A DNA stretch of 64,000 nt, taken from contig JAUSEK010000015.1 of NCBI GenBank assembly GCA_030650275.1, positions 67,834-131,833 on the forward strand, written 5' to 3'. Both the position numbers and the translations under genes were made by a program. The notes beneath the pieces are model-generated. The model had not been told where the DNA came from, did not search any database, and saw nothing but the letters and a program-made list of their open reading frames with translations. This DNA is from Candidatus Omnitrophota bacterium. Its GTDB lineage: Bacteria; Omnitrophota; Gorgyraeia; Zapsychrales; Fredricksoniimonadaceae. Positions 32,832-52,177 of the stretch are shown piece by piece. The stretch's first letter is position 1; every line of letters starts with the position of its first letter.

Positions 32832-34156
32832 TGGTAACCCAGACGCGCAACATGCTGTTGAACGTAGGCCCTTCGCACCCGGCGATGCACGGGGTCATCC
32901 GCTTGATCATGGAATTGGAAGGCGAGAAGATCAAAGGCGTGGACGTTGAGATCGGGTATCTGCACCGGGCCTTTGAGAAAATGTGCGAAACGGTCATGTA
33001 CGCCCAGTGCTTTCCCTACACCGACCGGCTGAATTACGTTTCTCCGCTTATCAATAACGTCGGTTTCGCGATGACCGTTGAGAAATTGCTGGGCATTGAT
33101 GTCCCGGAACGCGCGAAATACATCCGCGTCATCATGAGCGAGATCTCGCGCGTCACCGACCATCTGACCTGCATCGGCGCTTCCGCCATGGAGCTGGGGG
33201 CCATGTCGGTGTTTTTGTATATGATCAAGGCCCGCGAATATTTGTATGAACTGGTGGAAGAGATCACCGGCGCCCGTCTGACCATTTCTTATGTCCGTAT
33301 CGGCGGGGTCAAGGCCGATCTGACCGCGGGCTTCGTTGACAAGGCCTTCCAGAAGATCGCGGACGTCCGCAAAGTCCTCATTGAGGTGGATGAGCTATTG
33401 ACCCGCAACCGCATTTTTTTTGACCGCATGAAGGGCATCGGCACGATCTCTGCCGACGACGCGATCGCCTACGGGATCACGGGTCCATTCTTAAGGTCCA
33501 CAGGCGTTGCCTATGATGTCCGCAAGGCCAATCCGTATCTCATCTATGACCGCCTGGATTTTGAAGTCCCCACCGGGACCACGGGGGACAATCTGGACCG
33601 TTATTTTGTCCGCATGGCAGAGATGGAGCAAAGCTTGCGGATGATCGAGCAATGCTTCCAGCAGATCCCCGATGGGGCCGTTTCCGGCGAGTTAACGGGC
33701 TGTTTGGTCCCTGCCGCCCAGATGGTTGACCGCGCCAAGATGGGACAAACCGAAGATCTCATTGAAGATGAGGTTGATCTGGATCCCACGTTGCAGGGAG
33801 GGACAAAGAGATATCACGATGCCATCAACGCGGATCAAAAAGACGTTGTCCTGCCCGCCAAAGAAAATACCTACGGCAATATTGAGGGTTTGATGAACCA
33901 CTTTAAGCTGGTCATGTATGGCCACGGGATCCGTCCTCCCGTCGGAGAGGTTTATTTCCCCGTGGAAGGGGCCAATGGAGAATTGGGATTTTATATTGTC
34001 AGTGACGGCAGGGACCTTCCCTGGAGGGTGCGCGTCCATCCGCCGTGTTTCCCGATCATGGCCGCGCTGCCCAAATGTCTGGTCGGCGGCATGATGGCAG
34101 ACATGGTCTCCACATTCGGGTCCGTCAACATGATCGCGGGCGAGCTGGATAGATAA
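32831..34156 (+). CDS. nuoD: NADH-quinone oxidoreductase subunit D
   Basis: 441 aa. 49-kDa subunit (LNVGPSHPAMHGVIRL; C-terminal RVHPPCFP). Confidence 0.9.
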   Translation: MVTQTRNMLLNVGPSHPAMHGVIRLIMELEGEKIKGVDVEIGYLHRAFEKMCETVMYAQCFPYTDRLNYVSPLINNVGFAMTVEKLLGIDVPERAKYIRVIMSEISRVTDHLTCIGASAMELGAMSVFLYMIKAREYLYELVEEITGARLTISYVRIGGVKADLTAGFVDKAFQKIADVRKVLIEVDELLTRNRIFFDRMKGIGTISADDAIAYGITGPFLRSTGVAYDVRKANPYLIYDRLDFEVPTGTTGDNLDRYFVRMAEMEQSLRMIEQCFQQIPDGAVSGELTGCLVPAAQMVDRAKMGQTEDLIEDEVDLDPTLQGGTKRYHDAINADQKDVVLPAKENTYGNIEGLMNHFKLVMYGHGIRPPVGEVYFPVEGANGELGFYIVSDGRDLPWRVRVHPPCFPIMAALPKCLVGGMMADMVSTFGSVNMIAGELDR

Positions 34157-34157
34157 A

Positions 34158-34622
34158 ATGTTCACCACAGATCTGTTACGACAATTGGACAAGATCGCAG
34201 GTCAGTATGAGCAAAAACAGGCCGCGCTTTTGCCTGTTCTGCACGCGATCCAGGAGAAGGAGGGGTTGATCTCCCCGGAGTCGGAACAGGACGTTTCCCG
34301 GTATTTGGGCATTCCCGTGGTCCACGTCCATGAAGCGGTTTCTTTTTACCATTTGTTCCATCAAACAAAAAAAGGCAAATGCCATTTTTCGGTCTGTCAG
34401 ACCACGTCCTGCGCCTTGCTCGGAGGCGAGGACATCATTGAACATCTTAAAACGCGCCTGGGGATCAAGTCCGGGGAAACAACTCCCGACGGAAAGTTCA
34501 GTTTGAGCGTGGTGGAGTGCCTGGGGGCGTGCGAGTTAGCGCCCATGATGCAGTACAACAAGGAATACAGGGGTTTCTTGAACAAAAAGAAGATCGATGA
34601 GTTGATCGATAAGAATAAATGA
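34158..34622 (+). CDS. nuoE: NADH-quinone oxidoreductase subunit E
   Basis: 154 aa. 2Fe-2S thioredoxin-like (CQTTSCALLGGE...CLGACELAP). Confidence 0.9.
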   Translation: MFTTDLLRQLDKIAGQYEQKQAALLPVLHAIQEKEGLISPESEQDVSRYLGIPVVHVHEAVSFYHLFHQTKKGKCHFSVCQTTSCALLGGEDIIEHLKTRLGIKSGETTPDGKFSLSVVECLGACELAPMMQYNKEYRGFLNKKKIDELIDKNK

Positions 34623-34701
34623 CACCGAAGGTGTCACCCCCGAATGTTTTAGTCGGGGGTCCAGTGCACTGGATTCCCGATAAAAGCATTCGGGAATGAC
34701 A
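34619..34701 (-). repeat. Copy B of the ~90-bp multi-hairpin repeat, reverse orientation, in the nuoE|nuoF spacer
   Basis: Its reverse complement aligns base-for-base with copy A except for a 13-bp indel. Confidence 0.85.
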
Positions 34702-34710
34702 AGGATTGTT

Positions 34711-35970
34711 ATGGAAAAAGTCCTCACCAGAAATTTCGGCCTGGAAAATTCGCACCGCCTTGAGACCTATCTTAAAAACAAGGGTTATCAGGCGGCCCGC
34801 AAGGCCTTGACCAAAATGACGGGGCCCCAAGTCATTGATGAGATCAAAAAGTCCAATCTGCGGGGGCTCGGAGGGGCAGGTTTCCCGACGGGGATGAAGT
34901 GGGGCTTTATCCCGCAGGCCAACCCGAAACCGAAATATTTGGTCGTCAACGGGGATGAAGGCGAGCCGGGCACGTTCAAGGATAAATACATTTTTGAAAA
35001 AGATCCCCACGCCCTGCTTGAAGGGATCATCATCACCTGCTATGCCATCGCAAGTCACAAGGCCTATGTGTATGTCCGCGGCGAATACGTCAAATCCATG
35101 CAGACCCTGCAAGCCGCGATCGACGAGGCAAATTCATCGGGGTATTTGGGCAAGGGGATCATGGGAACGACGTTTGATCTTGATGTGGTCGTGCATCCGG
35201 GGGCCGGGGCATACATTTGCGGGGAGGAAACAGCGCTTTTGGAATCGCTGGAAGGCAAAAAAGGATTTCCCCGCCTTAAGCCGCCGTTTCCCGCGGTGGT
35301 GGGATTATTTGGATGCCCGACGGTGATCAACAATGTTGAGACCCTCTCCTGCGTGGGGCCCATCATTGCCAACGGCGGTGAATGGTTCGCCAAATTGGGC
35401 TCTCCCAAAAATGGCGGGAACCGGCTTTTTTGCGTGAGCGGGCATGTGAATAAACCCGGGGTTTATGAACTGCCCAACGGCATCACCCTGCGCGCAATCA
35501 TCTATGAGCATGCCGGAGGGATCCCCAACGGCAGGAAACTCAAAGCCGTTATCCCCGGGGGAATATCAGCTCCGGTCCTGACCGCGGATGAAATTGATGT
35601 GAAAATGGATTTTGATTCCTTAAAAGCGATCGGCTCCATGGCCGGCTCCGGCGGGATCATCGTCATGGATGACACCACGGACATGGTCTGGGCAGCCATG
35701 GTCGCGGCGCGGTTTTTCGCGCATGAATCCTGCGGCCAGTGTTCGCCCTGCCGCGAGGGCAGCGGATGGGTCTACAACAATTTGAAAAAACTTTATCAAG
35801 GGGGAGCGCGGCCGCATGATCTGGCCAATCTTCCGGGGATCATCGGCAATATCGGCGGCAACACGATCTGCGCTTTTGGCGACGCGGTGACCATGTCCGT
35901 CGGCAGTTATGTCTCCAAATTCCGCGAAGAGTTTGAAAACAAGATCAAAGAGAGAGTATGCCGAATCTGA
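34711..35970 (+). CDS. nuoF: NADH-quinone oxidoreductase subunit F
   Basis: ORF from 34696. The likely start is MEKVLT at 34711, just after the repeat. NADH/FMN motifs (GLGGAGFPTG). 4Fe-4S (ESCGQCSPCREG). Confidence 0.9.
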   Translation: MEKVLTRNFGLENSHRLETYLKNKGYQAARKALTKMTGPQVIDEIKKSNLRGLGGAGFPTGMKWGFIPQANPKPKYLVVNGDEGEPGTFKDKYIFEKDPHALLEGIIITCYAIASHKAYVYVRGEYVKSMQTLQAAIDEANSSGYLGKGIMGTTFDLDVVVHPGAGAYICGEETALLESLEGKKGFPRLKPPFPAVVGLFGCPTVINNVETLSCVGPIIANGGEWFAKLGSPKNGGNRLFCVSGHVNKPGVYELPNGITLRAIIYEHAGGIPNGRKLKAVIPGGISAPVLTADEIDVKMDFDSLKAIGSMAGSGGIIVMDDTTDMVWAAMVAARFFAHESCGQCSPCREGSGWVYNNLKKLYQGGARPHDLANLPGIIGNIGGNTICAFGDAVTMSVGSYVSKFREEFENKIKERVCRI

Positions 35971-37529
35971 CCATTGACGGACAAAAGATAGAGGTCCCGG
36001 CCGGGACAACAATTATCCAGGCCGCGGAGAAATTGGGAATTGAAATTCCCCGTTACTGTTATCATCCGGCCCTGCCTGTGGCCGGCAATTGCCGCATCTG
36101 CATGGTGGAAGTTGAAAAACAGCCCAAACTGCAGATCGCCTGCTATACGCCGGTGGCCGCGGGCATGGTTGTTAAGACGACTTCCCCCAAAGTTCTTGAA
36201 GCCCGTAAAAACGTATTGGAATTTTTGCTCGTCAATCATCCGCTGGACTGCCCGGTGTGTGACCAGGCCGGGGAGTGCAAGCTCCAGGATTACTATATGG
36301 AACATGGCCAGTACGATAGCCGTCTGGCGTCTGTGAAGGTCAAAAAAGAAAAAAAGGCCTTTTCCATCGGCCCGACGGTGATGCTGGACCAGGAACGCTG
36401 CATCCTCTGCACCCGCTGTGTGCGTTTTACGGATACGATCACCAAGACCAGCGAATTCGGGGTTTTTGACCGCGGTGATCATTCACAGCTGGATGTTTAT
36501 CCCGGCAAAGAGCTGGACAACAAATATTCCGGGAACGTCGTTGATATTTGCCCGGTCGGTGCTTTGACCGACAAGGACTTCCGCTTCAAATGCCGTGTTT
36601 GGTATCTGGACCACACCAAATCCGTGTGTCCGGGCTGCAGCATGGGGTGCAATATTGACATTGATTGGGACAAGTCGCGGCCGCACACAGAGAAAAAAGA
36701 GCGCGTGATGCGCTTAAAGCCGCGGCACAACCCCGACGTCAACAATTACTGGATCTGCGACAGCGGACGGTACAATTACCATTTTATTGACGAGAACCGT
36801 ATCCTGTCCCCGCAATACTTGGACAAGATCGTTGAATGGGGCGAGGCGATGGAACGGGTCGCCGAAACGATCCAATCCACCAAGGCGGAGCGCATTGGGG
36901 TTTTGGCCTCGGCCCAACTGACCAATGAAGACCTGTTCGTTATCCGCAAATTGTTCAAAGACACCCTTAAAGCGCACGTGGATTTCAGGGTGCCTGAAAA
37001 ACCGGGTGATAGTGATGATTTCCTTATCAAAGCGGACAAGAATCCCAACACGGCCGGCGCAGCGTCCATCCTTGGGGCCCAGGCAGACGCGCAGACCATC
37101 GTGCAAAAAGCAAAGCAGGGAGAACTTGACCTTCTTTATGTGTTCGGCCATGACCTGGTCAAGCTATTCGGCAAAGAGACCGTCGCGCAAATCGCCAAGA
37201 AGACCAAACTTTTTGTTTTTCAGGGCAGCAATATCAACGACACCTGCGGCTATGCCCATTTGAACCTGCCCAGCAGTGTTTACGCGGAAAAAGACGGGAC
37301 ATTCACCAATTGCCAGCAGAGGGTGCAGCGCATCCGGCCGGCATTCTTTCCGTTGGGCGAATCCAAAGGTGATTGGGAGATCGTGTCCTTTGTCGCCGGA
37401 CAATTGGGGGCCCCGCTTTCTTACAAAGGTCCCCAGGACGTATTTGATGACATCGTCAAAACCGTTGCCGGGTTTGCGGGGATGTCTTATGAGAAGATCG
37501 GCGATCAAGGAATGATCTTAAAAAAATAA
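35958..37529 (+). CDS. nuoG: NADH-quinone oxidoreductase subunit G (short form)
   Basis: 523 aa. 2Fe-2S and 4Fe-4S N-terminal cysteine clusters (CYHPALPVAGNCRIC; CPVCDQAGEC; CILCTRC). Confidence 0.85.
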   Translation: MPNLTIDGQKIEVPAGTTIIQAAEKLGIEIPRYCYHPALPVAGNCRICMVEVEKQPKLQIACYTPVAAGMVVKTTSPKVLEARKNVLEFLLVNHPLDCPVCDQAGECKLQDYYMEHGQYDSRLASVKVKKEKKAFSIGPTVMLDQERCILCTRCVRFTDTITKTSEFGVFDRGDHSQLDVYPGKELDNKYSGNVVDICPVGALTDKDFRFKCRVWYLDHTKSVCPGCSMGCNIDIDWDKSRPHTEKKERVMRLKPRHNPDVNNYWICDSGRYNYHFIDENRILSPQYLDKIVEWGEAMERVAETIQSTKAERIGVLASAQLTNEDLFVIRKLFKDTLKAHVDFRVPEKPGDSDDFLIKADKNPNTAGAASILGAQADAQTIVQKAKQGELDLLYVFGHDLVKLFGKETVAQIAKKTKLFVFQGSNINDTCGYAHLNLPSSVYAEKDGTFTNCQQRVQRIRPAFFPLGESKGDWEIVSFVAGQLGAPLSYKGPQDVFDDIVKTVAGFAGMSYEKIGDQGMILKK

Positions 37530-37532
37530 ACC

Positions 37533-38621
37533 ATGCAAGACATTTGGATCAAACTGATATTGGCCTGCGGTACGATATCAATGATGTTCGGCATCGCCGG
37601 GCTGTTGACCTGGGTTGAGCGCAAGCAAAGCGCGGTGATGCAGGACCGCATCGGCGCTAACCGCGCGTCCATTTTCGGCTTCAAGGCTCTGGGCCTTTTT
37701 CACGCCATCGCCGACGTGCTCAAAATGCTTAGCAAAGAGGAATTCATCCCACAGGGCGCCAACAAGTTCCTGTTCAATATTGCCCCTTATTTATCCATCA
37801 CGTTCGCTCTGGTCGGTTTTGCGGCCATCCCCATCGGCGATCAGCTGATCGTGGGGACCAAGGTCATTGAACTTCAGGCCGCGAATATCAACATTGCCCT
37901 TCTTTTTATTTTTGCCATGATGTCCATGAGCGTTTATGGCGTGGTGCTGGCCGGGTTTTCTTCCAATAATAATTATGCTTTTTTGGGCGGGATGCGCGGC
38001 GCCGCCCAGATGATCGCGTATGAGATCACCATGGGGGCGGCCATCATGGGCGTCATCATGGTCTATAACACGCTGGACCTTCAAGCGCTGGTCCGCGCTC
38101 AAGGGGAATATCTGATGGGTGGCTGGCTTCCCAAATGGGGGGTCTTTGTCCAGCCGCTGGCCTTTATTTTATTTTTGACCGCGGCCACGGCCGAGACCAA
38201 ACGCACCCCGTTTGACCTTCCCGAGGGGGAGTCGGAGATCGTCGGCTATTTCGTGGAATACAGCGGCATGAAATTCGGCATGTTCTTTATGGCCGATTTG
38301 GTGGAAACAGTCCTGGTTTCCGCCCTCATGACGACCTTGTTTTTGGGCGGATGGCAGGTGCCTTATCTGCATCCGGATGGATTTCACTTCCCGTGGGGGA
38401 GCTTTGCCGCGCTGCCGCATCTGGCTGTCGCGGGCTTAGGGGTTTTGGCGTTCTTTGCCAAACTGACTTTCTTTATCGGGATGTTAATGGCTGTGCGCTG
38501 GACCCTGCCGAGATTCCGTTATGACCAACTGATGCGTTTAGGATGGCAGATATTGCTTCCGGCATCCCTGGTTAACATCGCGGTCACGGCAATTGTGCTT
38601 ATAGTATTTAAAATTTTATAA
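37533..38621 (+). CDS. nuoH: NADH-quinone oxidoreductase subunit H
   Basis: 362 aa. 8-TM NuoH/ND1 core. Confidence 0.9.
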   Translation: MQDIWIKLILACGTISMMFGIAGLLTWVERKQSAVMQDRIGANRASIFGFKALGLFHAIADVLKMLSKEEFIPQGANKFLFNIAPYLSITFALVGFAAIPIGDQLIVGTKVIELQAANINIALLFIFAMMSMSVYGVVLAGFSSNNNYAFLGGMRGAAQMIAYEITMGAAIMGVIMVYNTLDLQALVRAQGEYLMGGWLPKWGVFVQPLAFILFLTAATAETKRTPFDLPEGESEIVGYFVEYSGMKFGMFFMADLVETVLVSALMTTLFLGGWQVPYLHPDGFHFPWGSFAALPHLAVAGLGVLAFFAKLTFFIGMLMAVRWTLPRFRYDQLMRLGWQILLPASLVNIAVTAIVLIVFKIL

Positions 38622-38675
38622 GAGTATGATTTTTTCCGCCAGAGGCGGATCCGCCTTTGGCGGAAAGGTGAATTC

Positions 38676-39260
38676 ATGGAACACCCGGAACTTGAGAAAT
38701 ATTTTGATGTCAAAGGGCCTTTTGCTTTTTTGCGCTTGGCCCAGATGAAGCGGGCGTGGAAGAACAAGAACCGCCGTGAATTGACATGGTGGGAGAATAC
38801 CTATATCCCGTCGGTGGTCAGCGGCATCTATCTGACCTCCAAACATTTCTTCCGCAACTTCACCCTGCACGTTTTTCATGCCGTCGGCCTTTTTAAGGAA
38901 ATTCCCGCCGCGGTCACGTGTCAATATCCCGAACAGACCCGGCCTTTGGCCAGCCGGACAAGGACGCGCCACCGGCTGACGAAACGCGAGGACGGTTCTC
39001 CCCGGTGTGTGGCCTGCATGATGTGCGAGACCGTCTGCCCCGCCCGCTGCATTGAGATCACGGCGGCCGAACACCCGGACCCCAACATTGAGAAATACCC
39101 AGCCGAATTCATCCTGGATCTGGGCAAATGCGTCTACTGCGGTTTTTGCGTGGAGGTCTGCCCGGAAGATGCCATCCGCATGGACACCGGCCGGCTCGAT
39201 ATCGCTGAATATTCCCGCGAAAGCATGATTTACGACAAAAAGCGGCTGATGGAAGAGTAA
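38676..39260 (+). CDS. nuoI: NADH-quinone oxidoreductase subunit I
   Basis: 194 aa. Two 4Fe-4S ferredoxin motifs (CVACMMCETVCP; CVYCGFCVEVCP). Confidence 0.85.
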   Translation: MEHPELEKYFDVKGPFAFLRLAQMKRAWKNKNRRELTWWENTYIPSVVSGIYLTSKHFFRNFTLHVFHAVGLFKEIPAAVTCQYPEQTRPLASRTRTRHRLTKREDGSPRCVACMMCETVCPARCIEITAAEHPDPNIEKYPAEFILDLGKCVYCGFCVEVCPEDAIRMDTGRLDIAEYSRESMIYDKKRLMEE

Positions 39261-39269
39261 AGGAGGGTA

Positions 39270-41528
39270 ATGAGAATAACGTTGAGACTTGTGTGTTTCT
39301 TGGTCGGTATTGTGGCCCTGGTCGCGCTCGTGTTCTCATTCTGGCAGGTCAGGCAGGAAGAAGACCGTCTCAAGGGAGAATTGGAAAAAAGGGCCGGTGT
39401 TTTTGCCGACAGCCTCAAGATCGCGGTTGAGCCGTTATTATCGGCTGATAATGTTCAGGCCCTTCAGAGCATGGTGGACAGGTTTTCTAATCGTGAACGG
39501 CTGGTTGGCATCGCCATTCATGATGTCCGGGAAAATTTGATCGTCGCATCCACGGAGATCCGTCCGCGGCTGGAAAAAGACCCGGGCTTCTGGGCGCAGG
39601 GGGTCCAGGACGTTGAGCGTTCAGGCGGGGAGCACGGCAGTTTTATGGGCTTCGGGAACGAGGCATTATATGTGTATGCCATTCCGATCCTGGCGGACAA
39701 CGAGGTCACGCGCGTTCTGTCGATCTTTTATGATGCCGGTTATATCCAGGAACGCATCCACCGCCTCTGGATCAACAGTTTTTGGCGGGCCTCTATCCAG
39801 GCATTCCTGATCACATTAGCGACGTTTCTTCTTATTTATCTCAACGTGATGGCCCCCATCAAGAAAACCACCGAATGGATCAGGAGGATCCGCAAAGGTG
39901 AATCTGTTCCCAGGCTGGATGCCAAGGGAGAATTGCTGCTGGGCCCTTTGGCCCAGGAGATCACACAAATGGCCAAAAGTTTGGAGATGGCCAGATTTGC
40001 CGCCGAGGAAGAGGCCCGTTTGCGGTATTCTTCGGAATCCCGATGGACGCCGGAGCGTTTGAAGGAGGTGGTACGGCTCAAGCTTAAGGACAAGCCGCTG
40101 TTCGTGGTCTCCAACAGGGAGCCGTACATGCATATTCATAACGGCAATCGGATCGAGTGCATTGTCCCGGCCAGCGGCTTGGTCACGGCCCTTGAGCCGG
40201 TGCTCAATGCCTGCGGAGGCACATGGATCGCGCAGGGCTCGGGTGACGCGGACAGGGAAACGGTCGACAAGAACGATAAGGTCAGGGTCCCTGTGCAGGA
40301 GCCGAAATACACCCTGCGGCGCGTATGGGTGGACAAGGACGTGGAAGAAGGATTTTATTCCGGATTTTCTAATGAAGGACTATGGCCTTTGTGCCATATC
40401 GCGCATACCCGGCCCATTTTCAGGAGCAAGGACTGGGCCGATTACAAGGCCGTCAACAAGAAGTTTGCCGACGCGGTCCTGCAAGAGATCGACGGGGTGG
40501 AGGGGCCTTATATTTTGATACAGGATTATCATTTTGCGTTGCTGCCGCGTTTGATCAAAACGGCAAGGCCGGATGCGCGGGTGGCGATCTTCTGGCACAT
40601 TCCGTGGCCGAATCCGGAATCGTTCGGCATTTGTCCATGGCGCAAAGACCTTTTGCAGGGCATGCTCGGCGCGGACCTTATCGGTTTCCATACGCAATTC
40701 CATTGCAATAACTTTATCGAATCCGTGGACCGGTTCCTCGAATGCCGCATTGATTATGAGCATTTTACCGTCAATCGTGAGGGCCACACCACATGGATCA
40801 AGCCGTTTGCCATCAGCATCGATTTCAATCCCGCCGACGGGGCCCAGCCCCAGACCCCATCCACAAAAGAGGGCCTGCTGAAACCCCACGGCATCCAGGC
40901 CCAATGGCTTGGTGTGGGAGTGGACCGGCTGGATTATACCAAGGGCATCGTGGAAAGGTTTCGGGCCATCGAGAACCTGCTGGACAATCATTCGGCCTTC
41001 AAGGGAAAACTCACCTTTGTCGAATTGGGGGCCCCGAGCCGCATCATGATCCCCAAGTATAAGGAATTCATCGATGAGATCGTCAAGGAGACCGAGCGCA
41101 TCAACGCGAAGTTCAAAACAAAGAACTGGCAGCCCATCCTGCTGTTGATGAAACACCACAGCCACAAGGACATCATCCCGTTTTATAAGGCCGCGGACGT
41201 GTGCATGGTGACGTCCTTGCACGACGGGATGAACCTGGTCGCCAAGGAATTCATTGCGGCGCGCGATGATGAGCAAGGAGTGCTGGTCCTAAGCCAGTTC
41301 ACCGGGGCTTCCAGGGAATTGAAGGACGCGCTGATCGTCAATCCTTATGATGTCGGTCAGATGTCGGAGGCACTCAAGCAGGCCCTGGAAATGCCGGACA
41401 AGGAACAGGCCGAGCGCATGAAGCGCATGCGCGATATCATCAAAGACAACAATATTTACCGCTGGGCCGGCGAACTGGTGGGACAATTGACCCAGGTCCG
41501 GATCGAGGGCGAGGAACCTTCCGCATGA
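39270..41528 (+). CDS. otsA: Membrane sensor-domain/HAMP-like::trehalose-6-phosphate synthase (GT20, OtsA) fusion
   Basis: 752 aa. TM1 (residues ~5-25). About 150 aa predicted periplasmic. TM2 (~aa 170-190). Amphipathic HAMP-like linker. Complete GT20 OtsA catalytic region from ~aa 270 ([12 protein letters not shown]..., [21 protein letters not shown]). Confidence 0.8.
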
Positions 41529-42319
41529 CGCAAATTTTCGACGCTCTGGATGCGTTAAAGGGCCGCGTCGCCGGCAGAGAGCTGGTCCTTTTTTTGGATT
41601 ATGACGGCACGCTGGCGCCGATCGCACAGAGGCCGGAGAAGGCCGTACTCGCCTCCGCGATGCGGTCGCTCTTGCAGGACCTGGCTGCGGCCCCCGCGTG
41701 CAAGGTCTGCGTTGTCAGCGGCAGGGCGCTCGCGGACATCAAGGAGCTCACCGGTGTCAGCAATATTAGTTATGTCGGCAATCACGGCCTTGAAATGGAC
41801 GTTCCCGATTTCGTTTTCGGGAATTTCGATCTTGCGCGGACCGGGGAAGTTCTGGGTCTCTTGAAGGAAGAGATCGGCAAGGCCATCTCTTCTTTCGAAG
41901 GTGCGTTCGTTGAGGACAAGGGTATCACGTTGAGCGTGCACTACCGCCTTGTCAGTCCCCGGTCGGAAGACCCCATCAAACGTTTGCTGGAGGACATCAC
42001 GAAACCCTTCGTGGCCAGGGGGGAAGTGCGCGTCAGTTCGGGCAAGAAGGTTTTTGAAATAAAGCCGCTCATTGATTGGGACAAGGGCCGGGCCGTTGCA
42101 TGGCTCTTGGGCGAGCATCAAAAGGCCTGCGGGACGATGCCAGCTGTCGTTTATATCGGGGATGACCGGACGGACGAGGATGCGTTCAAAGCCCTTACAG
42201 GCAGGGGCATCACCATCAAGGTCGGCGAAGGCGCAACGGCCGCGGAGTATCATGTGAAAGACCAGAACGAGGTCATTGTCCTGTTGAAGGCGATCTTGGG
42301 CTTAAGGAGGAAGGAATGA
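41525..42319 (+). CDS. otsB: Trehalose-6-phosphate phosphatase
   Basis: 264 aa. HAD motif I LFLDYDGTLAPI. Motif IV GDDRTDEDAF. Start overlaps the otsA stop. Confidence 0.85.
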   Translation: MTQIFDALDALKGRVAGRELVLFLDYDGTLAPIAQRPEKAVLASAMRSLLQDLAAAPACKVCVVSGRALADIKELTGVSNISYVGNHGLEMDVPDFVFGNFDLARTGEVLGLLKEEIGKAISSFEGAFVEDKGITLSVHYRLVSPRSEDPIKRLLEDITKPFVARGEVRVSSGKKVFEIKPLIDWDKGRAVAWLLGEHQKACGTMPAVVYIGDDRTDEDAFKALTGRGITIKVGEGATAAEYHVKDQNEVIVLLKAILGLRRKE

Positions 42320-44136
42320 CCGCGGGGTCCCCCAAAAACTTGAATTATGGCATCATCGGCAACTGCACCAGCGCGGCATTGGTCAATGAGGACTGTTCCA
42401 TTGATTGGCTATGCCTGCCTTTTTTTGACTCTTCTTCCGTGTTCGCGCGTATTCTCGATGAACAAAAAGGGGGACATTTTAAAATTTGGGCAAAAGACAT
42501 TTTAAATGTTGAGCAGTCCTATCTGTATCACACTCCTATCATCAAAACAGTTTTTACGACCAAGGACGGGGTATTTGAGGTGAGGGATTATATGCCCCGT
42601 TTCAGTCCTCATATTGGACAGGTTTATTGTCCGGCCGAGATCCACCGGGATGTTCATCTGGTCCGGGGAAACCCCAAGATCATTGTTGAATTTAAACCCA
42701 GACCTAATTACGGCTTGAGCGAGGCCCAATTGACCCCGCATCCTGAATATTTAAAAGTAACGTCCGTTCAGGGCGAATACAACAGTTATTATCTTTATAC
42801 AAATTTCAACATGAATGACATCATGCAGGACAGGGAAATTGAGCTTAAAGGACCGGCTTATTTTCTTTTGTCCTATCACGAGAAAATGGACCCGGTGACC
42901 CAGGATAAAATATTGATGGAATACGAACGGACAAAAAGTTATTGGCTGGATTGGGTTTATCGGACAAAAGTTCCCGGGAAATACCAGGAGATGCTCCTGC
43001 GTTCGATCATCACGCTCAAACTGTCCATGTTCCAACGCACCGGCGCGGTCATTGCCGCGCCGACAACGTCCCTACCGGAGATCATCGGGAAAGACCGCAA
43101 CTGGGATTACCGTTATTGCTGGGTGAGGGACGCGTCCATGATCATTGATCTGTATTCCCGCATCGGACATGCCAGGACCTCGTTGAGGTATATCAATTTC
43201 ATCCTGAACCGGATGCTCGTTAAAGATTACAACATTTTAGTGGTGTACGGCATTAACGGGGAAGAGAAGCTTGAGGAAAGGACCCTGGACCATTTGAGCG
43301 GGTATGAGGGATCGCGTCCGGTGCGCGTCGGCAATGCCGCCTATAAACAGAAACAAAATGACGTGTACGGGGAGCTGATCGAGACGATCTACACTTCATT
43401 TGTCGTTGATTCCCGCAGTGACCTGTTATTGAATGAAGAAACCTGGACGGTGGTGCGTTCTTTGGTCAAAAATGTGGAAAAAATATGGAAAGAGCCGGAC
43501 AGCGGCATATGGGAACGCAGGGGATCCCTGCGGCATTTTGTCCATTCCAAGCTCATGAGCTGGGTCGCGATGGACAGGGCGGCAAAGATCGCCCAATTCA
43601 TCGGCAAGACGCGTTATGTCGCGGGATTCTTAAAGGTGGCGGAGGAGATCAAGGAGGATATTTTAAAGAATGGATGGGATGATGAGTTAAAAAGTTTTGT
43701 GATGTATTATGGCGGCAAGGAATTGGACGCTTCCAACCTCTTGATGCTTCACTATGGCTTCCTGAACAAGGACGATCCCCGCATGGTGAGCACGGTGCTT
43801 AATACGCATCAAGTGTTGACCAAGGACGGTTTTGTCCTGCGTTACAAAGCCCCTGATGAATTCGGCAAGCCGCAAAACGCCTTTATCGTGTGTACGTTTT
43901 GGATGATCAACGCGCTGTACCTGATCGGGCATGAACAGGAGGCGCGCGATATGCTGGAGAAGATCATGTCTCATGCCAACAGATTCGGGCTTTTTTCTGA
44001 AGACATAGAGACAGACACCGGACGTTTGACGGGCAATTTCCCCCAGGGGTATTCCCACCTGGCCTTTATCCAGACCATTTTTGTTCTGGAAACGCAATAT
44101 GACTGGAGCGACGCGTCCAGGAAACGGATAAAATAA
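42316..44136 (+). CDS. Glycoside hydrolase family 15 protein (glucoamylase/trehalase-like)
   Basis: 606 aa. GH15 N-terminal beta-sandwich plus (alpha/alpha)6 barrel (AAPTTSLPE...WDYRYCWVRDAS...). Coupled to otsAB. Confidence 0.75.
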   Translation: MTAGSPKNLNYGIIGNCTSAALVNEDCSIDWLCLPFFDSSSVFARILDEQKGGHFKIWAKDILNVEQSYLYHTPIIKTVFTTKDGVFEVRDYMPRFSPHIGQVYCPAEIHRDVHLVRGNPKIIVEFKPRPNYGLSEAQLTPHPEYLKVTSVQGEYNSYYLYTNFNMNDIMQDREIELKGPAYFLLSYHEKMDPVTQDKILMEYERTKSYWLDWVYRTKVPGKYQEMLLRSIITLKLSMFQRTGAVIAAPTTSLPEIIGKDRNWDYRYCWVRDASMIIDLYSRIGHARTSLRYINFILNRMLVKDYNILVVYGINGEEKLEERTLDHLSGYEGSRPVRVGNAAYKQKQNDVYGELIETIYTSFVVDSRSDLLLNEETWTVVRSLVKNVEKIWKEPDSGIWERRGSLRHFVHSKLMSWVAMDRAAKIAQFIGKTRYVAGFLKVAEEIKEDILKNGWDDELKSFVMYYGGKELDASNLLMLHYGFLNKDDPRMVSTVLNTHQVLTKDGFVLRYKAPDEFGKPQNAFIVCTFWMINALYLIGHEQEARDMLEKIMSHANRFGLFSEDIETDTGRLTGNFPQGYSHLAFIQTIFVLETQYDWSDASRKRIK

Positions 44137-44145
44137 TACCCAGAC

Positions 44146-45219
44146 ATGGTCCTCATTTTTTCCTCCCTCTTAATTCTCGGAATCATTTCAGGCCAATTTG
44201 TTGATTTTTTTCAGGTCCGCGGGATCTTGACCTTCAGCGCGTCCGTATGCCTGGCTTATATCATGATGGATGTGGGGCGAGAATTTTCCGTTGAGAAGAG
44301 AAGTGTGGGGAGCTATGGACGGGATTCTCTGATCGCCACGGCGGCCGCGGTGCTCCCGGCGGTCCTGTGGTTTGGATATTTTGTGGTCTTTGTCAATAGC
44401 CATTGGAAGCCGGCGTTATTGTCAGGGCTTTCTTCGGCGCCCACGTCCGCCGGCGTTCTTTTCGCGATGATGACGGCGGCGGGTCTTTCCGCCGGCTGGG
44501 TCTTTAAGAAAGCGCGGGTCCTGGCTGTCCTGGATGATCTGGCGACCATCCTGTTATTAACGCCGCTTGCGATCATCATGTACGGGTTTGAATGGAAGGC
44601 GATCGCGGCGCTTATCCTGGTCGGTGTATTGTTATTCGCGTCATTCCGTTGGCAGGGCGCCATTCCATGGCCGGTCAGAACAATTTGGCTTTCTGTTTAC
44701 GCGTTTGTCTTAACGGGCATGGTTTTTCTGGTTGAGCAGGCAACGCACATTCATTTGGGAGTGCTGGTTCCGGCCTTCGTGTGGGGATGTTTACTGCGCC
44801 TGCCCGCGGATCAGAATCTTGAAGGACCGTCCCCCAGGATATCTTTGGACGCTGTCATCAAGGGAGCGTTCATGCTGTTAGTCGGGCTGACCTTTCCAAA
44901 GATCGTTGCCGGATCGGCTTCCCTGGCGCAAACGGCAGGGCATGTGCTGATCCTGACAATATTGGCGAACGTCGGGAAATTATTCCTGGTTTTTTGCTAC
45001 AAGACAGAGGCCTCTTTGAAAGAACGGATGGCTTTGGGTGTTGCGATGTTCCCCCGCGGGGAAGTGGGGGCCGCGATTTTGCTCATCGCCATCGGCTATG
45101 GCCTGGGCGGCTACGAAAACACCCTGGCCATCTTAAGCTTGGCGCTTAACCTAGTCCTGACCGGGGCGTTTATCTGGATCGTGATCCGTTTATTGAAACC
45201 TACTCGTTCTCTTTCCTGA
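44146..45219 (+). CDS. Polytopic membrane transporter (cation:proton antiporter-like)
   Basis: 357 aa. About 11 TM. No soluble domain. Family assignment is tentative. Confidence 0.4.
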   Translation: MVLIFSSLLILGIISGQFVDFFQVRGILTFSASVCLAYIMMDVGREFSVEKRSVGSYGRDSLIATAAAVLPAVLWFGYFVVFVNSHWKPALLSGLSSAPTSAGVLFAMMTAAGLSAGWVFKKARVLAVLDDLATILLLTPLAIIMYGFEWKAIAALILVGVLLFASFRWQGAIPWPVRTIWLSVYAFVLTGMVFLVEQATHIHLGVLVPAFVWGCLLRLPADQNLEGPSPRISLDAVIKGAFMLLVGLTFPKIVAGSASLAQTAGHVLILTILANVGKLFLVFCYKTEASLKERMALGVAMFPRGEVGAAILLIAIGYGLGGYENTLAILSLALNLVLTGAFIWIVIRLLKPTRSLS

Positions 45220-45394
45220 CGTCGATCCCCATGATCTCCCCGCCGCGGACCTTGACCTTCACCACGATGGGCGCACAGCAGACCTCGCAATCCACCACCA
45301 GCCGTTGTTCGGACCCACCGGTCGTGTCCACCATAAGCGTGTTGTCCTGGCCGCAGTAAGGACACACAAAGTTTTCGTCATGTTCCAGAGGCAT
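45200..45394 (-). CDS. CPXCG-motif zinc-ribbon protein
   Basis: 64 aa. CPYCG...CEVCC. Small cysteine-rich protein. Confidence 0.6.
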   Translation of the reverse strand: MPLEHDENFVCPYCGQDNTLMVDTTGGSEQRLVVDCEVCCAPIVVKVKVRGGEIMGIDVRKENE

Positions 45395-45427
45395 AATTTA
45401 ATAATACTCCCGTGGCCATGGCCGCGT

Positions 45428-45450
45428 CAAGGAAAGGGCCCCAGATTTTA
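45428..45450. repeat. Direct repeat 1 (ATGGCCGCGTCAAGGAAAGGGCC) flanking the TA cassette
   Basis: 22/23 identical to 46361-46383, which lies in the nuoN 3' end. Confidence 0.85.
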
Positions 45451-45622
45451 TAGCTTGATTTTATACAATAAATGTGCAGAATTAATAAAAGAAGCTACCA
45501 CATACGTTTCATCCCCGCCGCTTCTGTTTAATAATCCCCGTTTTTGATAGAATTGCCACGGAAGTTAAAATAATGAACTTGCAAATACAACCATATAGTT
45601 GTATACTTTAGTAGGTAGCAGA

Positions 45623-45976
45623 ATGAGTAAATTTACATGTATTTATTATCAAACCGATGCAGGGAGAAGGCCCGTTGAGGAGTTTATTGATTCTTTGCAT
45701 GAAAGAACGCAGCAAAAGTATTTTGAGGTGGTGGGGTTATTAGAGGATTATGGGAAGAGTTTACCAAAGCCGCACGCGGATTTTTTAGGCGGTGAGATTT
45801 ATGAGCTTCGGTTTGTAGGGATTGAAGGGAAAGTAAGAATTTTATATTTCTTTTATCATGGCAACAAGATCATTTTTACAAATGGTTTTGTAAAGAAACG
45901 GCAAAAGGCCCCTAAGATAGAGGTTGAATTAGCCAAAGAGAGAAGAATTCTTTATATCGGGAAGCACAATGGGTGA
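45623..45976 (+). CDS. Type II toxin, RelE/ParE superfamily (HigB/Gp49-like)
   Basis: Likely start MSKFTCIYYQTDAGRRPVEEFI. About 117 aa. ...LRFVGIEGKVRILYFFYHGNKIIFTNGFVKKRQKAP typical of the Gp49-like HigB family. The toxin gene comes first. Confidence 0.7.
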   Translation: MSKFTCIYYQTDAGRRPVEEFIDSLHERTQQKYFEVVGLLEDYGKSLPKPHADFLGGEIYELRFVGIEGKVRILYFFYHGNKIIFTNGFVKKRQKAPKIEVELAKERRILYIGKHNG

Positions 45977-45979
45977 CAT

Positions 45980-46309
45980 ATGAAAGAAATGACCGTTAGA
46001 GAACATCTTCAGGAGAAATTGAAGAATCCTTATTTCAAGGAACTGCACGAACTTGAGCAGCAGAAGTATGCCATTGTTAAGAAAATCATTGATTATCGTA
46101 TTAAGCAGAATCTCACCCAAGCGGATCTAGCTGAGCAGATCAAAGTATCTCAACAGCATATTTCTAAGATCGAGAGCGGCGAGTTCAGCAGTGTGGCTAC
46201 GTTAGAGAAAGTGTTATTGGGGATCGGCATGACCGTCAGGATCGGGGTTGTTAAATTAAATCCCCAGATCCATAAGAAAATAACCCGGGCAATGACCCAT
46301 TCTGTTTAA
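45980..46309 (+). CDS. XRE-family HTH antitoxin (HigA-like)
   Basis: 109 aa. LTQADLAEQIKVSQQHISKIESGE HTH_3 motif. 3-bp spacing after the toxin gene. Confidence 0.75.
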   Translation: MKEMTVREHLQEKLKNPYFKELHELEQQKYAIVKKIIDYRIKQNLTQADLAEQIKVSQQHISKIESGEFSSVATLEKVLLGIGMTVRIGVVKLNPQIHKKITRAMTHSV

Positions 46310-46323
46310 GGCGGTTTTTTGCG

Positions 46324-47772
46324 TTATGGATGGATGAGGGACATTCCTTTGACGGCGGTGATGGCCGCGTCAAGGAAGGGGCCTTGGAAGATCCCGATGC
46401 CGACGATGCCGACGATGGCAACTCCGAGGACCAGGCGCATGGGCAAGGATACGGGGATGGGGGAAGTTGTGCGAGGCGCGTCAACATAAACGCGTTTGAC
46501 GACCATCAGGTAGTAGTAGGTTGAGATTACGATATTGACCACCGCAATGAGCGCCAGCCATACCAATCCGCTGTTGACCGCCGCCATCAGTAAGGTGAAT
46601 TTCCCGAAGAATCCGGCCAATGGCGGCACGCCTGCCAACGAGACCAGCGCCAAAAGCATGGTGCAGGCCAAAATGCCTGAACGCTTGGAAAGCCCCGCGT
46701 AATCTTCAATGTCATCGCCTTTTGCGGCAATGGAAAACAGGACAATGACCAGGAACGCCGCAAGATTCGTGAACAAATACCCCAACAGATAGAAATTGAT
46801 CGCCGACGCTCCAAGGATCGTTCCCGTGGCAGCACCCATGAGAAGATAACCGGCATGGCTGATGCTGGAATAGCCCAGCAATCTTTTGATATTCGTCTGG
46901 AACATGGCCACCAGATTGCCGTAGGTCATGGTGATGGCGGAAAGAACAGCCAGCATCAAACTCAACTCCATGTGCCAGGGAGCAAAGACGCCGAAGAAAA
47001 GGCGGATGAGGACCACGAATCCTGCGGCTTTGGACCCGACGGACAACAGGGCCGTCACCGGCGTCGGGGCGCCCTGATAGACATCCGGGACCCACATATG
47101 AAAAGGAACAGCCGCGATCTTGAAACCCACAGCCGCAAAAACGAGGACCAGGCCAAACGCCATCATGGGGGTCATGGCATGGGTGGCGGCAAACACCTGG
47201 ATGGCATCAAAGCGCGTGGAGTGGGTGACGCCATAGAGAAAACTCATGCCGTAGAGGAAGAAGCCCGACGACAAAGCGCCCAGGATCAAATATTTCATGC
47301 CCGCTTCAATGGAAAGTTTATCGCTTTTCAGATAAGCGGTCATGACGTACAGGGAAATGGTGAGTATTTCGATCGCAATAAAGAGCAAAAGGAAATCCGC
47401 GGAAGACGCAACAAGGCACATTCCGATCAACGTCAGCCACAATAATAAATAGAATTCGTTGCGCCGTCCCCCTAAGGACTTGAAGTATTGCTGGGTCATG
47501 ACAAAAACGAAGACCATGGCCAGCAGGAAGAACATTTTAAAAAACCAGGCCAGGGAATCCATCACAAACATCCCGCCGAACGTTGTTCCGGCGAGATCGT
47601 GCTGGGTGAGCCAGAAGGCAATGAGGCCGGAGAGGGCGATGAAACTTGAAATGCCGAGCCAGTCCTTTTGTGTATTTTTCGGCAACAAGATGTCCATCAC
47701 CATCAGGGCCGCGATGATCAGGGCGATGAGCAACTCCAATGAAATTAAGTTCCAGTCAATGACGGGGAACAT
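46324..47772 (-). CDS. nuoN: NADH-quinone oxidoreductase subunit N
   Basis: 482 aa. 14-TM antiporter-like. MFPVIDWNL start. Confidence 0.9.
   Translation of the reverse strand: MFPVIDWNLISLELLIALIIAALMVMDILLPKNTQKDWLGISSFIALSGLIAFWLTQHDLAGTTFGGMFVMDSLAWFFKMFFLLAMVFVFVMTQQYFKSLGGRRNEFYLLLWLTLIGMCLVASSADFLLLFIAIEILTISLYVMTAYLKSDKLSIEAGMKYLILGALSSGFFLYGMSFLYGVTHSTRFDAIQVFAATHAMTPMMAFGLVLVFAAVGFKIAAVPFHMWVPDVYQGAPTPVTALLSVGSKAAGFVVLIRLFFGVFAPWHMELSLMLAVLSAITMTYGNLVAMFQTNIKRLLGYSSISHAGYLLMGAATGTILGASAINFYLLGYLFTNLAAFLVIVLFSIAAKGDDIEDYAGLSKRSGILACTMLLALVSLAGVPPLAGFFGKFTLLMAAVNSGLVWLALIAVVNIVISTYYYLMVVKRVYVDAPRTTSPIPVSLPMRLVLGVAIVGIVGIGIFQGPFLDAAITAVKGMSLIHP
46361..46383. repeat. Direct repeat 2 (ATGGCCGCGTCAAGGAAGGGGCC), inside the nuoN 3' coding end
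   Basis: Partner of 45428-45450. 933 bp apart. Brackets higBA. Confidence 0.85.
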
Positions 47773-47800
47773 AGCGTTCTTTCATATTTTGTCACCCTTT

Positions 47801-47890
47801 TGTCATGCCCGAATGCTTCTGTCGGGCATCCAGTGCATTAGTGTCTGGACCCCCGACTAAAACATTCGGGGGTGACAAGCGGAATGACAT
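47801..47890 (+). repeat. Copy C of the multi-hairpin repeat, in the nuoM|nuoN spacer
   Basis: TGTCATGCCCGAATGCTTCTGTCGGGCATCCAG...GACCCCCGACTAAAACATTCGGGGGTGACA. Stem 1 carries paired T>G/A>C changes relative to copy A that preserve base-pairing. Confidence 0.85.
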
Positions 47891-49375
47891 TCAATATTTA
47901 ATACGACTACTCTCGACAATCGCTTTTGTGCTTGAGTCAATGTGATTCAAGATCAGCGACGGAAAACATCCGGCGAGGATCAATACGGCCAATAACAGCG
48001 CAAAGGGCAATTTTGCCAGAGGTGTTTGGGCATCCAACAGTTTGGAACAACGGGGATTCAGCGGCCCTTGGAAACCGAGGCGGATGGCTTTGAGCATATA
48101 AATGGCCGTGAGCACGACGCCCAGGACAGCCAGGACGGTATATAAACGGTATTGGTCCCACGCGCCTAAGAGGATCATGATCTCCGAGACAAAATTCGCG
48201 AATCCGGGTACGCCCGCGGAGGCGAGGGCTGCCATGGCAAAACACGTGGCCACAAACGGCATCTGTTTGGCCAGGCCGCCCCATTCATCCAAATTGCGGG
48301 TCCTGGTTTGATCGGCGATAAATCCGGTCAACGCGAAGGCGAGCGCCGCCATGATGCCGTGGGCGAACATCAAAAACACCACACCGTTAATGCCGATCAC
48401 ATTAAAACAGGCCAGGCCCAGCAGGATGTAGCCCATGTGGCTGCAGCTGGAATACCCCAAAATATATTTGAGGTCCCGCTGGGTCAGGGCGACTAATCCG
48501 CAGAAAAGGATATTGACGACGGCCAGGGCGGCGATGACGGGCATCCAGGTATGGGCGGCCTCGGGCATCAATTGAATGGCGAAGCGGATAATGGCATAAG
48601 CGCCCATTTTTTTGAGCACACCGGCGTGCAGCATGCTGATGGCTGTGGGCGCTTCCGCATACCCCACCGGAGCCCAGGTATAAAAAGGCCAGAGGGTCAG
48701 CGTTACGCCAAATCCGACGACGATCAGAGGGAAGACCCAGTTTTGAACGCTGATCGGCAAAGGATTGGCTGCTAAATACTGCTGGATTTGGACCAGATCA
48801 AATGTCTGCAAGCCGGTCGCAAGATATAAGGCAATGAGCCCGATCAGGGCCAGGGTCGCGCCGGCGATCAGATAAAGGGTCAATTTCATGGCGGCGTATT
48901 CACGACGCTCGGACCCCCAAATGGCGATCATTAAAAAGACCGGGATGGCCGCGACTTCGTGGAAGAAATAGAAAAAGAAAATATCCAGGGAGAGGAAGGC
49001 GCCGTAGGTGCCGATGACTGTGATCAATAAAAGGATGTAATATTCTTTGACCCGCTCCTTGATGGAGCCGCTGACGAGGAGGGCGGCGAAAGAAACGACC
49101 CCTAAGAGCAGCAAGAGCAGGGAATTGATCCCGTCGACCCCGACATGGTATGAGATGCCGAGCGGGGCGACCCAGGGGATTTTCTGAACGAATTGAAAAC
49201 CGCCTGCCGCGTGATCGTAAGCAGCCAACACCCAAACAGATAAAAGGAAAGGCAGAAGCACGGCAGCCGTAGAGATCCTGCGGATCGAAGAGGTCTTGTC
49301 AGACCCGACCATGAAAAGCAGGCCTAAGCCCGCCAAGGGCAGTAAAAGGATCCAGGAAAGATCAGGAACCATCAT
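47891..49375 (-). CDS. nuoM: NADH-quinone oxidoreductase subunit M
   Basis: 494 aa. Antiporter-like subunit. Confidence 0.9.
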   Translation of the reverse strand: MMVPDLSWILLLPLAGLGLLFMVGSDKTSSIRRISTAAVLLPFLLSVWVLAAYDHAAGGFQFVQKIPWVAPLGISYHVGVDGINSLLLLLLGVVSFAALLVSGSIKERVKEYYILLLITVIGTYGAFLSLDIFFFYFFHEVAAIPVFLMIAIWGSERREYAAMKLTLYLIAGATLALIGLIALYLATGLQTFDLVQIQQYLAANPLPISVQNWVFPLIVVGFGVTLTLWPFYTWAPVGYAEAPTAISMLHAGVLKKMGAYAIIRFAIQLMPEAAHTWMPVIAALAVVNILFCGLVALTQRDLKYILGYSSCSHMGYILLGLACFNVIGINGVVFLMFAHGIMAALAFALTGFIADQTRTRNLDEWGGLAKQMPFVATCFAMAALASAGVPGFANFVSEIMILLGAWDQYRLYTVLAVLGVVLTAIYMLKAIRLGFQGPLNPRCSKLLDAQTPLAKLPFALLLAVLILAGCFPSLILNHIDSSTKAIVESSRIKY

Positions 49376-52051: not shown

Positions 52052-52132
52052 ATGCTCAATATAGAAATAACCGTCATATTGTCAAGAATATTGTGCTATT
52101 GTTGTATTTTTTCAGCGGATAGAGAGAAAATT

Positions 52133-52177
52133 TGTCATTCCCGAAAGTTTCTGTCGGGAATCCAGACAAGGAACCCC
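52133..52177 (+). repeat. Partial copy D (first hairpin only) of the multi-hairpin repeat, upstream of nuoJ at the island boundary
   Basis: TGTCATTCCCGAAAGTTTCTGTCGGGAATCCAGACAAGGAACCCC. Confidence 0.75.

Follow-up and report, generated by a model that had tools for sequence, protein, structure and literature searches.

A predicted fusion of a transmembrane sensor module to a GT20 trehalose-6-phosphate synthase in Candidatus Omnitrophota and other bacteria: a candidate receptor-glycosyltransferase

A stretch of 64,000 nucleotides from contig JAUSEK010000015.1 (positions 67,834 to 131,833, forward strand) of the Candidatus Omnitrophota metagenome-assembled genome (MAG) GCA_030650275.1, hereafter the window, carries at positions 39270-41528 (+) a gene encoding a protein of 752 amino acids in which a membrane-spanning input module, of the type that precedes the catalytic core of sensor kinases, is joined to a trehalose-6-phosphate (T6P) synthase domain of the glycosyltransferase family GT20. 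The open reading frame takes as its start the first ATG that follows a stop codon, and its product is identical to MDO8675334.1 of a Candidatus Omnitrophota MAG. Both this architecture and the competence of the enzyme domain are predicted with high confidence from the sequence. It is also considered probable that the protein functions as a dimeric receptor-enzyme whose rate of T6P synthesis is set by an extracytoplasmic cue, the regulation and the dimerization being proposed from the domain organization. More tentatively, with a likelihood judged to fall a little short of even, the protein would represent the founding example of a receptor-glycosyltransferase, in which a Cache-HAMP receptor gates an enzyme of primary metabolism and thereby converts an extracellular or membrane cue, namely osmotic or envelope stress, to synthesis of a compatible solute within one polypeptide, without a kinase, a second messenger or transcription. 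The protein is no one-off; it is a member of a large and unrecognized family that extends over multiple phyla.

Only two hydrophobic segments were found in the entire 752-residue protein (Kyte-Doolittle, 19-residue window), and these agree with the two transmembrane (TM) helices claimed in a first-pass annotation of the window. TM1 (residues 7-25; 39288-39344, +; hydropathy peak of 2.79) lies within a helix modeled from residue 2 to 58, with the N-terminus of the protein predicted to be cytoplasmic, and TM2 (residues 173-197; 39786-39860, +; peak of 2.11) forms part of a continuous model helix of residues 157-208. TM2 is bounded by an invariant Arg (R173) at its start and an invariant Pro (P196) at its end, and seven Lys or Arg residues are located within the 23 residues C-terminal to it, as would be expected from the positive-inside rule. 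The same two segments were present in 105 of 112 full-length homologues. Because a GT20 enzyme needs cytoplasmic sugar nucleotide (uridine diphosphate [UDP]-glucose) as well as glucose 6-phosphate (G6P), the 146 residues between the two TM segments would face outward, an orientation that combines the sequence with the established biochemistry of the family. This extracytoplasmic segment had been estimated at about 150 residues in the first-pass annotation, and it can now be described as a single domain of the PDC/Cache fold with that of WalK as its closest structural match.

The assignment of this PDC/Cache-fold sensor to residues 26-172 (39345-39785, +) was made from an AlphaFold2 model, Foldseek comparisons and weak Cache-clan matches within the family. 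The model of the full-length protein (mean pLDDT of 84.7) begins with the helix of residues 2-58, which comprises TM1 and a periplasmic stalk, and continues into a compact alpha/beta domain. When residues 27-172 were modeled separately (pLDDT of 91.5, pTM of 0.83), the order of the helices (H) and strands (E) was H, H, E, E, H, H, E, E, E, H, in accord with the PDC fold, in which a long helix at the N-terminus precedes an antiparallel sheet of five strands with flanking helices, and a C-terminal helix leads into TM2. Foldseek searches of the PDB placed the extracellular domain of Staphylococcus aureus WalK/YycG first (4ywz, 7dud, 5is1; TM-scores of 0.70-0.76, reaching 0.74-0.76 for the best match, E of 2.5e-8 to 1.5e-7, probability 1.00), followed by the sensor domains of KinD, CitA and DctB. 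Sequence comparisons pointed in the same direction with weak scores. N-terminal residues 8-250 were collinear with the NCBIfam model HK_WalK (E of 2.5e-6), further weak matches to the input modules of the kinases CreC, BaeS and MtrB were obtained within the N-terminal 250 residues, and the family profile weakly matched the WalK extracellular domain (E of 0.014) and KinD (E of 0.08) in the PDB. The window protein itself matched no Cache-clan family of Pfam at E <= 1; among 24 members of the family, all Cache-clan matches were weak (SMP_2 in 12, sCache_4 in six, dCache_1 in two and dCache_3 in one; best E of 8.6e-5), and precomputed matches to dCache_1 or sCache_3_2 exist for some relatives. Conservation within the sensor is concentrated in the motif F72-x-N-R-E-x-L-x-G80, in residues Q26, E30, R33, L34 and R41 of the membrane-proximal helices, and in the membrane-proximal residues Y158, I159, R162, W167 and R173.

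TM2 is followed by a divergent HAMP domain (approximately residues 196-245; 39855-40004, +), with its first helix (AS1) at residues 196-208, the connector at 209-224 and its second helix (AS2) from residue 225. In the model, the helix of residues 157-208 runs without interruption from the sensor through TM2 into AS1, and the 16-residue connector then leads to a helix of residues 225-255 that comprises AS2 and an extension; pLDDT values for the HAMP region of this single-chain model were 63-74. The invariant P196 and G210 supply the two residues expected of a HAMP in AS1, a Pro close to where this helix starts and a Gly where it ends. Pfam HAMP was matched in 14 of 24 family members at E < 0.1 (best E of 7.3e-5), and a gapless alignment could be made with the canonical HAMP of an HD-GYP protein encoded elsewhere in the window, in which P196, G210, G225 and the sequence MAKSL coincide. 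E230 had been considered as the canonical HAMP glutamate and was ruled out, as the gapless alignment places DEIG at L222-L223-L224-G225. The HAMP-like relay proposed in the first-pass annotation is thus retained as a helix-connector-helix that follows TM2 and aligns without gaps to a canonical HAMP, albeit as a divergent form below the Pfam threshold in the window protein. Between HAMP and enzyme lies an output linker (residues 246-276; 40005-40097, +) consisting of AEEEARLR and then a W259-T260-x-x-R-L-K-E helix that enters beta-1 of the GT20 domain; E248, A249, L251, R252, W259, T260 and L264 are invariant, and the model contains a short helix at residues 261-272 and GT20 beta-1 from residue 277.

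The HD-GYP protein (21452-22861, +) has the order TM-sensor-TM, followed by a HAMP of the canonical type (59 bits) and by HD_5 (HD-GYP). The fusion protein had been said to share its topology, and this proved correct; in both proteins, a transmembrane sensor and HAMP are joined to an enzyme within the same polypeptide. Paralogy of the two sensors was considered and rejected (BLASTP E of 0.5, with the HAMP region alone aligned).

The C-terminal portion of the protein (residues 277-745; 40098-41504, +) was recognized as a GT20 catalytic domain of the OtsA type from Pfam, matches to known structures and conserved residues. Pfam Glyco_transf_20 (PF00982) matched residues 278-741 with an E of 1.2e-116 and 390.7 bits against a cut-off of 32.5, OtsA/Tps1 structures in the PDB were matched at E of 1e-64 to 1e-73, and identity with Escherichia coli OtsA was 35%. 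Eleven of the 11 E. coli OtsA residues that function in catalysis or in the binding of G6P and UDP-glucose are conserved, and these are invariant in 75 homologues: counting the initiator Met, R10, G23, Y77, W86, D131 and H155 correspond to R283, G303, Y363, W372, D419 and H443, and R263, K268, R301, D362 and E370 correspond to R553, K558, R591, D652 and E660. With positions 4-472 of the 473 in the Pfam profile spanned and the catalytic residues intact, the domain is complete, as had been claimed. HisKA and HATPase domains were absent from the window protein (Pfam, E <= 1), and NCBIfam histidine kinase models matched its N-terminal 250 residues only.

GT20 domains that are not catalytic exist in plants as the class II T6P synthases (TPS), and on this precedent the domain could be envisaged as a pseudo-enzyme, a ligand-binding reporter of sugar-nucleotide or T6P status that signals from the inside to the outside. 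Such a role is very improbable: none of the catalytic and substrate-binding residues varies among 75 to 228 sequences, the GT20 domain is the most conserved region of the protein, and a dedicated phosphatase is encoded adjacent to it. A different product was also considered and is improbable. The protein scored below the cut-offs of the NCBIfam OtsA equivalog models (TIGR02400, 422.5 vs. 564.85 bits; NF007513, 260.6 vs. 759 bits) and therefore belongs to a distinct subfamily. It also fell below the cut-off for the bifunctional synthase-phosphatase TPS-TPP (PRK14501, 482 vs. 634 bits), matching positions 4-466 only of the 729 in that model; the protein is not bifunctional, the phosphatase being a separate gene (41525-42319). 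The model for GgpS (TIGR02398) gave 305 bits. Two insertions relative to E. coli OtsA are specific to the subfamily, as are five cysteines (C315, C375, C455, C479 and C645; codons within 40212-41204) that are invariant in 227-228 of 228 sequences and are replaced in E. coli OtsA by A, F, L, an insertion and G, respectively; these cysteines may provide a metal or redox site peculiar to the sensor-fused enzymes. Together with the low identity to E. coli OtsA, these features would be compatible with a sensor-regulated GT20 enzyme that makes, for example, glucosylglycerol-phosphate, or that uses an unusual donor. Set against them are the retention of every G6P- and UDP-glucose-binding residue of E. 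coli OtsA, the presence of an above-cut-off T6P phosphatase gene overlapping the stop codon with a trehalase-like GH15 gene next to it, and the adjacency of otsB in most related loci. Formation of T6P from nucleoside diphosphate-glucose and G6P is the predicted reaction, supported by the context of the otsB and TreH-like GH15 genes.

A survey of OtsA homologues for this N-terminal extension had been suggested in the first-pass annotation, and it revealed about 240 clusters with the same layout. With clusters counted at the level of 90% identity, a search with the full-length protein returned more than 110 clusters of approximately 750 residues (query coverage of 97-100%, identity of 57-81%), mostly from Candidatus Omnitrophota and in some cases from Kiritimatiellia or Eisenbacteria. 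A further 120 clusters of the same length (Syntrophorhabdaceae, Thermodesulfovibrionales, Nitrospirota) came from a second search, for which a Syntrophus MAG served as the seed, and these brought the total to more than 230. Using a profile of the N-terminal module and one genome per species, at least 464 species genomes were found to encode the fusion, which is spread over about eight phyla (Omnitrophota, Elusimicrobia, Desulfobacterota, Nitrospirota, NC10, Acidobacteriota and others). Taxonomy and neighborhoods were compiled for the best 80 of these loci, with taxa assigned by record title: 19 were from Omnitrophota, 12 were labeled Planctomycetales or Planctomycetia, 13 were from Elusimicrobia, 19 from Desulfobacterota, Deltaproteobacteria or Syntrophia, six from Nitrospirota, five from Acidobacteriota, two from NC10/Methylomirabilota, and one each from Eisenbacteria and Bacteroidota, with two unclassified. 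An exhaustive search of 1.84 billion representatives with the N-terminal-module profile gave 182 matches at E <= 1e-30, 796 at <= 1e-10 and 2588 at <= 1e-3. Among the 150 matches listed, mostly metagenomic fragments, 47 aligned past residue 300 into GT20 and approximately 39 others carried more than 40 residues of unaligned tail or leader; a word-index search with the N-terminal 275 residues alone retrieved 10 short fragments only.

These data also bear on the possibility, named in the first-pass annotation, that a missed stop codon or a frameshift in the assembly or its annotation has fused otsA with the gene of a sensor. Because the genome is a MAG, assembly errors are possible in principle; nothing else was found in favor of an artifact. 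Sensor and GT20 domain are encoded in a single uninterrupted frame in 76 of the 79 loci that contain both parts, these loci being independent and distributed among many phyla, the same protein recurs in the roughly 240 clusters, and the linker that would mark the junction is highly conserved. An artifact is thereby excluded, with negligible residual probability.

The conservation of the different parts of the protein provides the evidence for coupling between them. Mean pairwise identity rose from 0.46 in the periplasmic domain to 0.57 in HAMP, 0.71 in the linker (residues 246-275) and 0.72 in GT20, so that the linker is under the same degree of constraint as the catalytic domain. Across 228 sequences, the pairwise identity of GT20 correlated with that of the periplasmic domain (r = 0.90) and with that of the TM2-HAMP-linker region (r = 0.93), and a near-identical enzyme with a divergent sensor, a hint of sensor swapping, was encountered in only one of 25,878 pairs. 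This co-divergence is in keeping with a single ancient fusion, after which the modules evolved together and domains were not shuffled. The case for post-translational control by an external signal, as suggested in the first-pass annotation, is strengthened by these two features, a linker conserved to the same degree as the enzyme and the co-divergence of sensor and enzyme.

The fusion gene is located in a tight string of co-directional genes that begins with nuoD, nuoF, nuoG, nuoH and nuoI (32831-39260) and continues through the fusion gene to otsB, a GH15/TREH_N gene and a gene for a membrane protein of 357 residues. A Shine-Dalgarno-like sequence, AGGAGGG (39261-39267, +), directly follows the nuoI stop codon (39258-39260) and is positioned two nucleotides ahead of the ATG. 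Downstream, otsB (41525-42319, +), encoding the T6P phosphatase (TIGR00685, 181.5 bits vs. a cut-off of 68; Pfam Trehalose_PPase, E of 1.1e-44), starts over the stop codon of the fusion gene (ATGA), giving an overlap of four nucleotides. A second overlap of four nucleotides connects otsB to the gene for a GH15 hydrolase with a trehalase-like N-terminal domain (TreH-like; 42316-44136, +), which was identified by Pfam Glyco_hydro_15 (E of 4.9e-66) and TREH_N (E of 1.7e-18) and scored 426 bits with the NCBIfam model trehalase_H1_Arch, under its cut-off of 820. Both of the downstream genes claimed in the first-pass annotation, otsB and the GH15 hydrolase, are therefore in place. The string ends with the gene for the polytopic 357-residue protein (44146-45219, +), for which Pfam and NCBIfam gave no match; it is weakly similar to the CPA2 Na+/H+ antiporter NapA (E of 0.0013), has AV(I/L)DD and PRGEVG in common with it, and is probably a divergent cation/proton antiporter of the CPA type. 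A consensus scan of positions 35000-46500 found promoter-like sites to be no commoner than in shuffled sequence and no convincing promoter or terminator in the gap between nuoI and the fusion gene; the limits of the operon were drawn from gene spacing only.

Neighbors were counted in the 80 loci from the species scan together with one further locus (L082), for a total of 81. The otsB gene adjoins the fusion gene in most of these, a GH15 gene follows the fusion gene in about 18, and a CPA-like membrane protein is a neighbor in about nine others. A mechanosensitive channel of the MscS family (Pfam MS_channel), which is absent from the window, occurs in 16 loci, and in about 12 from Omnitrophota its gene lies directly between the fusion gene and otsB (L008, 8257-9351; also L002, L005, L006, L009, L010, L013, L015, L018 and L020). 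A pair of genes encoding a TreT-like GT1 glycosyltransferase and a DUF5752 protein was present in 38 of the 81 loci (e.g., L063, 7-1922; L082, 4128-6004), beside the fusion gene in Desulfobacterota, Nitrospirota, Elusimicrobia and some Omnitrophota; no mention of DUF5752 was found in the full-text literature searched. As genes for the synthesis and breakdown of a solute, a release valve for hypo-osmotic conditions and a cation/proton antiporter are found together, the neighborhood suggests a function in osmotic homeostasis and adaptation.

Complex I genes occur in the window as two convergent blocks, nuoD/F/G/H/I (32831-39260, +) and nuoL/M/N (46324-51237, -), and the trehalose cluster starts 10 nucleotides after nuoI. 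In L082, a relative of another lineage, nuoA-F likewise adjoin the fusion gene. The link between Complex I and the trehalose cluster may be coincidental or physiological.

Given its domain organization, the protein is proposed to function as an inner-membrane receptor-enzyme in which TM1, the WalK-like PDC/Cache domain, TM2 and HAMP constitute a standard transmembrane input module, and in which the kinase core of the WalK-type layout has been replaced by a catalytically intact GT20 T6P synthase. By analogy with other HAMP proteins, it would form a parallel homodimer. The packing of HAMP is envisaged to be altered, by way of TM2, in response to a cue at the outer face of the membrane or within it, and the AEEEARLR/WTxxRLKE linker would then transmit this change to beta-1 in the N-terminal Rossmann domain; this strand bears the G6P-binding Arg283 approximately 10 residues past the linker helix. 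Acceptor binding, closure of the GT-B domains or the arrangement of subunits might be affected in this way, changing the rate of T6P synthesis. OtsB would convert the T6P to trehalose, which the apparently co-transcribed GH15 enzyme could degrade. As synthase and hydrolase appear to share a transcript, the direction of flux would be set by control at the level of activity; with synthase, phosphatase and probable trehalase produced together, such control would avoid a futile cycle and permit rapid switching. The physiological role is most likely to be a fast adaptation to stress of an osmotic or envelope nature. An osmotic or envelope-related identity for the cue itself is possible, though somewhat doubtful. 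The invariant cysteines and the repeated Complex I neighborhood could add a redox input.

Several observations weigh against regulation of this kind. The region that corresponds to the ligand pocket and flap of PDC domains (approximately residues 95-135) is poorly conserved, and a single common small-molecule ligand is therefore not evident. Pfam HAMP matched the window protein (residues 189-239) below threshold, with an E of 0.0018 and 19 bits vs. a cut-off of 25, and the D-E of the canonical DEIG is L-L, which is the reason for describing this HAMP as divergent. The scores below the OtsA equivalog cut-offs leave the substrate specificity less than certain. In addition, the active site of GT20 enzymes is contained within one subunit, so that gating by a dimeric HAMP is not obvious.

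The variable pocket region and the divergent, sub-threshold HAMP would also suit an N-terminal module that has retained a sensor-like fold while serving as a membrane tether or dimerization scaffold that no longer signals, and the analysis identified no ligand or partner for the module. T6P synthesis would then simply be placed at the membrane, whether near channels and transporters or for protection of the bilayer, with its activity constitutive or controlled by metabolites; soluble OtsA enzymes are known to be allosterically regulated by metabolites (PMC6879718). This alternative is regarded as unlikely. A single TM helix would suffice for a tether, and what has been kept across about eight phyla is a complete TM-sensor-TM-HAMP module within a protein of constant overall length (approximately 745-760 residues), with key HAMP and charged juxtamembrane residues invariant and a linker conserved to the same extent as the enzyme. 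For the receptor-enzyme, the pattern of conservation suggests a conserved transmission apparatus that serves an input which either varies or is not one small ligand.

Each part of the protein has known counterparts. The GT-B fold GT20 domain, with its catalytic and substrate-binding residues, is common to OtsA from E. coli, mycobacteria and fungi, and a phosphatase of the OtsB type, as in the otsBA pathway, is encoded next to the fusion gene. The matched OtsA/Tps1 chains in the PDB, most of them 455-534 residues long, cover residues 274-751 of the fusion protein only; the latter has an additional TM-sensor-TM-HAMP-linker module of 275 residues. In contrast to otsBA, the window has otsA ahead of otsB, and the string of genes there includes a trehalase. 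The layout of the WalK/YycG kinases, in which TM1, a single extracellular PAS/Cache (PDC) domain, TM2 and HAMP succeed one another, is collinear with that of the fusion protein, whereas the DHp/HisKA, HATPase and cytoplasmic PAS domains of these kinases are missing from it, its output is a glycosyltransferase and the sequence similarity is marginal. Known cases in which a single chain unites sensor, HAMP and enzyme are found among kinases, cyclases, GGDEF/EAL and HD-GYP proteins and phosphatases, and the HAMP-adenylate cyclases and Cache-HAMP-GGDEF proteins follow the same logic of sensor, HAMP and enzyme. However, the outputs of such HAMP receptor-enzymes make or destroy second messengers or phosphorylate, while that of the fusion protein is a biosynthetic enzyme for a compatible solute, with no intermediate messenger or transcriptional step.

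Switching of solute accumulation at the level of protein by an osmotic cue is also familiar from GgpS of Synechocystis and the transporters ProP, BetP and OpuA. GgpS is a GT20 enzyme as well, like the fusion protein. These four systems sense ionic strength or the state of the membrane through the working protein itself or through electrostatic inhibition, and to our knowledge none bears a dedicated Cache-HAMP receptor module. No description of a compatible-solute synthase linked to HAMP or Cache was found in the full-text literature, a search that did not extend to subscription-only publications, and public annotations of the family read plainly "trehalose-6-phosphate synthase" with the sensor unmentioned. 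A genome-based study of the Omnitrophota likewise records "trehalose synthesis" only (PMC8542988). The components, a GT20 OtsA, a WalK-like PDC/Cache domain and HAMP, are all known, and it is for their combination that no precedent was found in these searches.

Bacterial control of trehalose is, in textbook form, transcriptional (RpoS and the osmotic induction of otsBA), supplemented by effects of ions and metabolites on a soluble enzyme. If the proposed mechanism is correct, a receptor wired to the synthase would let the environment act on the level of a compatible solute much faster and more directly, and the output repertoire of HAMP and Cache modules would be widened from signaling enzymes to core metabolism. 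The release of UDP or the formation of T6P would offer a simple, assayable output for the study of signal transmission by HAMP, and the module could serve as a chassis on which sugar synthesis is placed under the control of a ligand. This large family is found mostly in uncultured and largely anaerobic lineages, and recognition of its sensor changes the reading of their stress physiology.

Two other features of the window were noted. A toxin-antitoxin pair (45599-46309, +), composed of a Gp49/HigB-like toxin of 125 residues followed by an HTH_3 antitoxin of 109 residues, is situated between the trehalose cluster and the convergent nuoN. Farther downstream, positions 52000-62200 form an island of low GC content (0.33-0.41 vs. 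about 0.53 elsewhere) with genes for a 1065-residue protein with PLD and SNF2/ResIII helicase domains, a 603-residue protein without a family, an Eco57I-type methylase and a Schlafen/AlbA_2-HATPase_c_4 protein; the region resembles a defense island gained by horizontal transfer.

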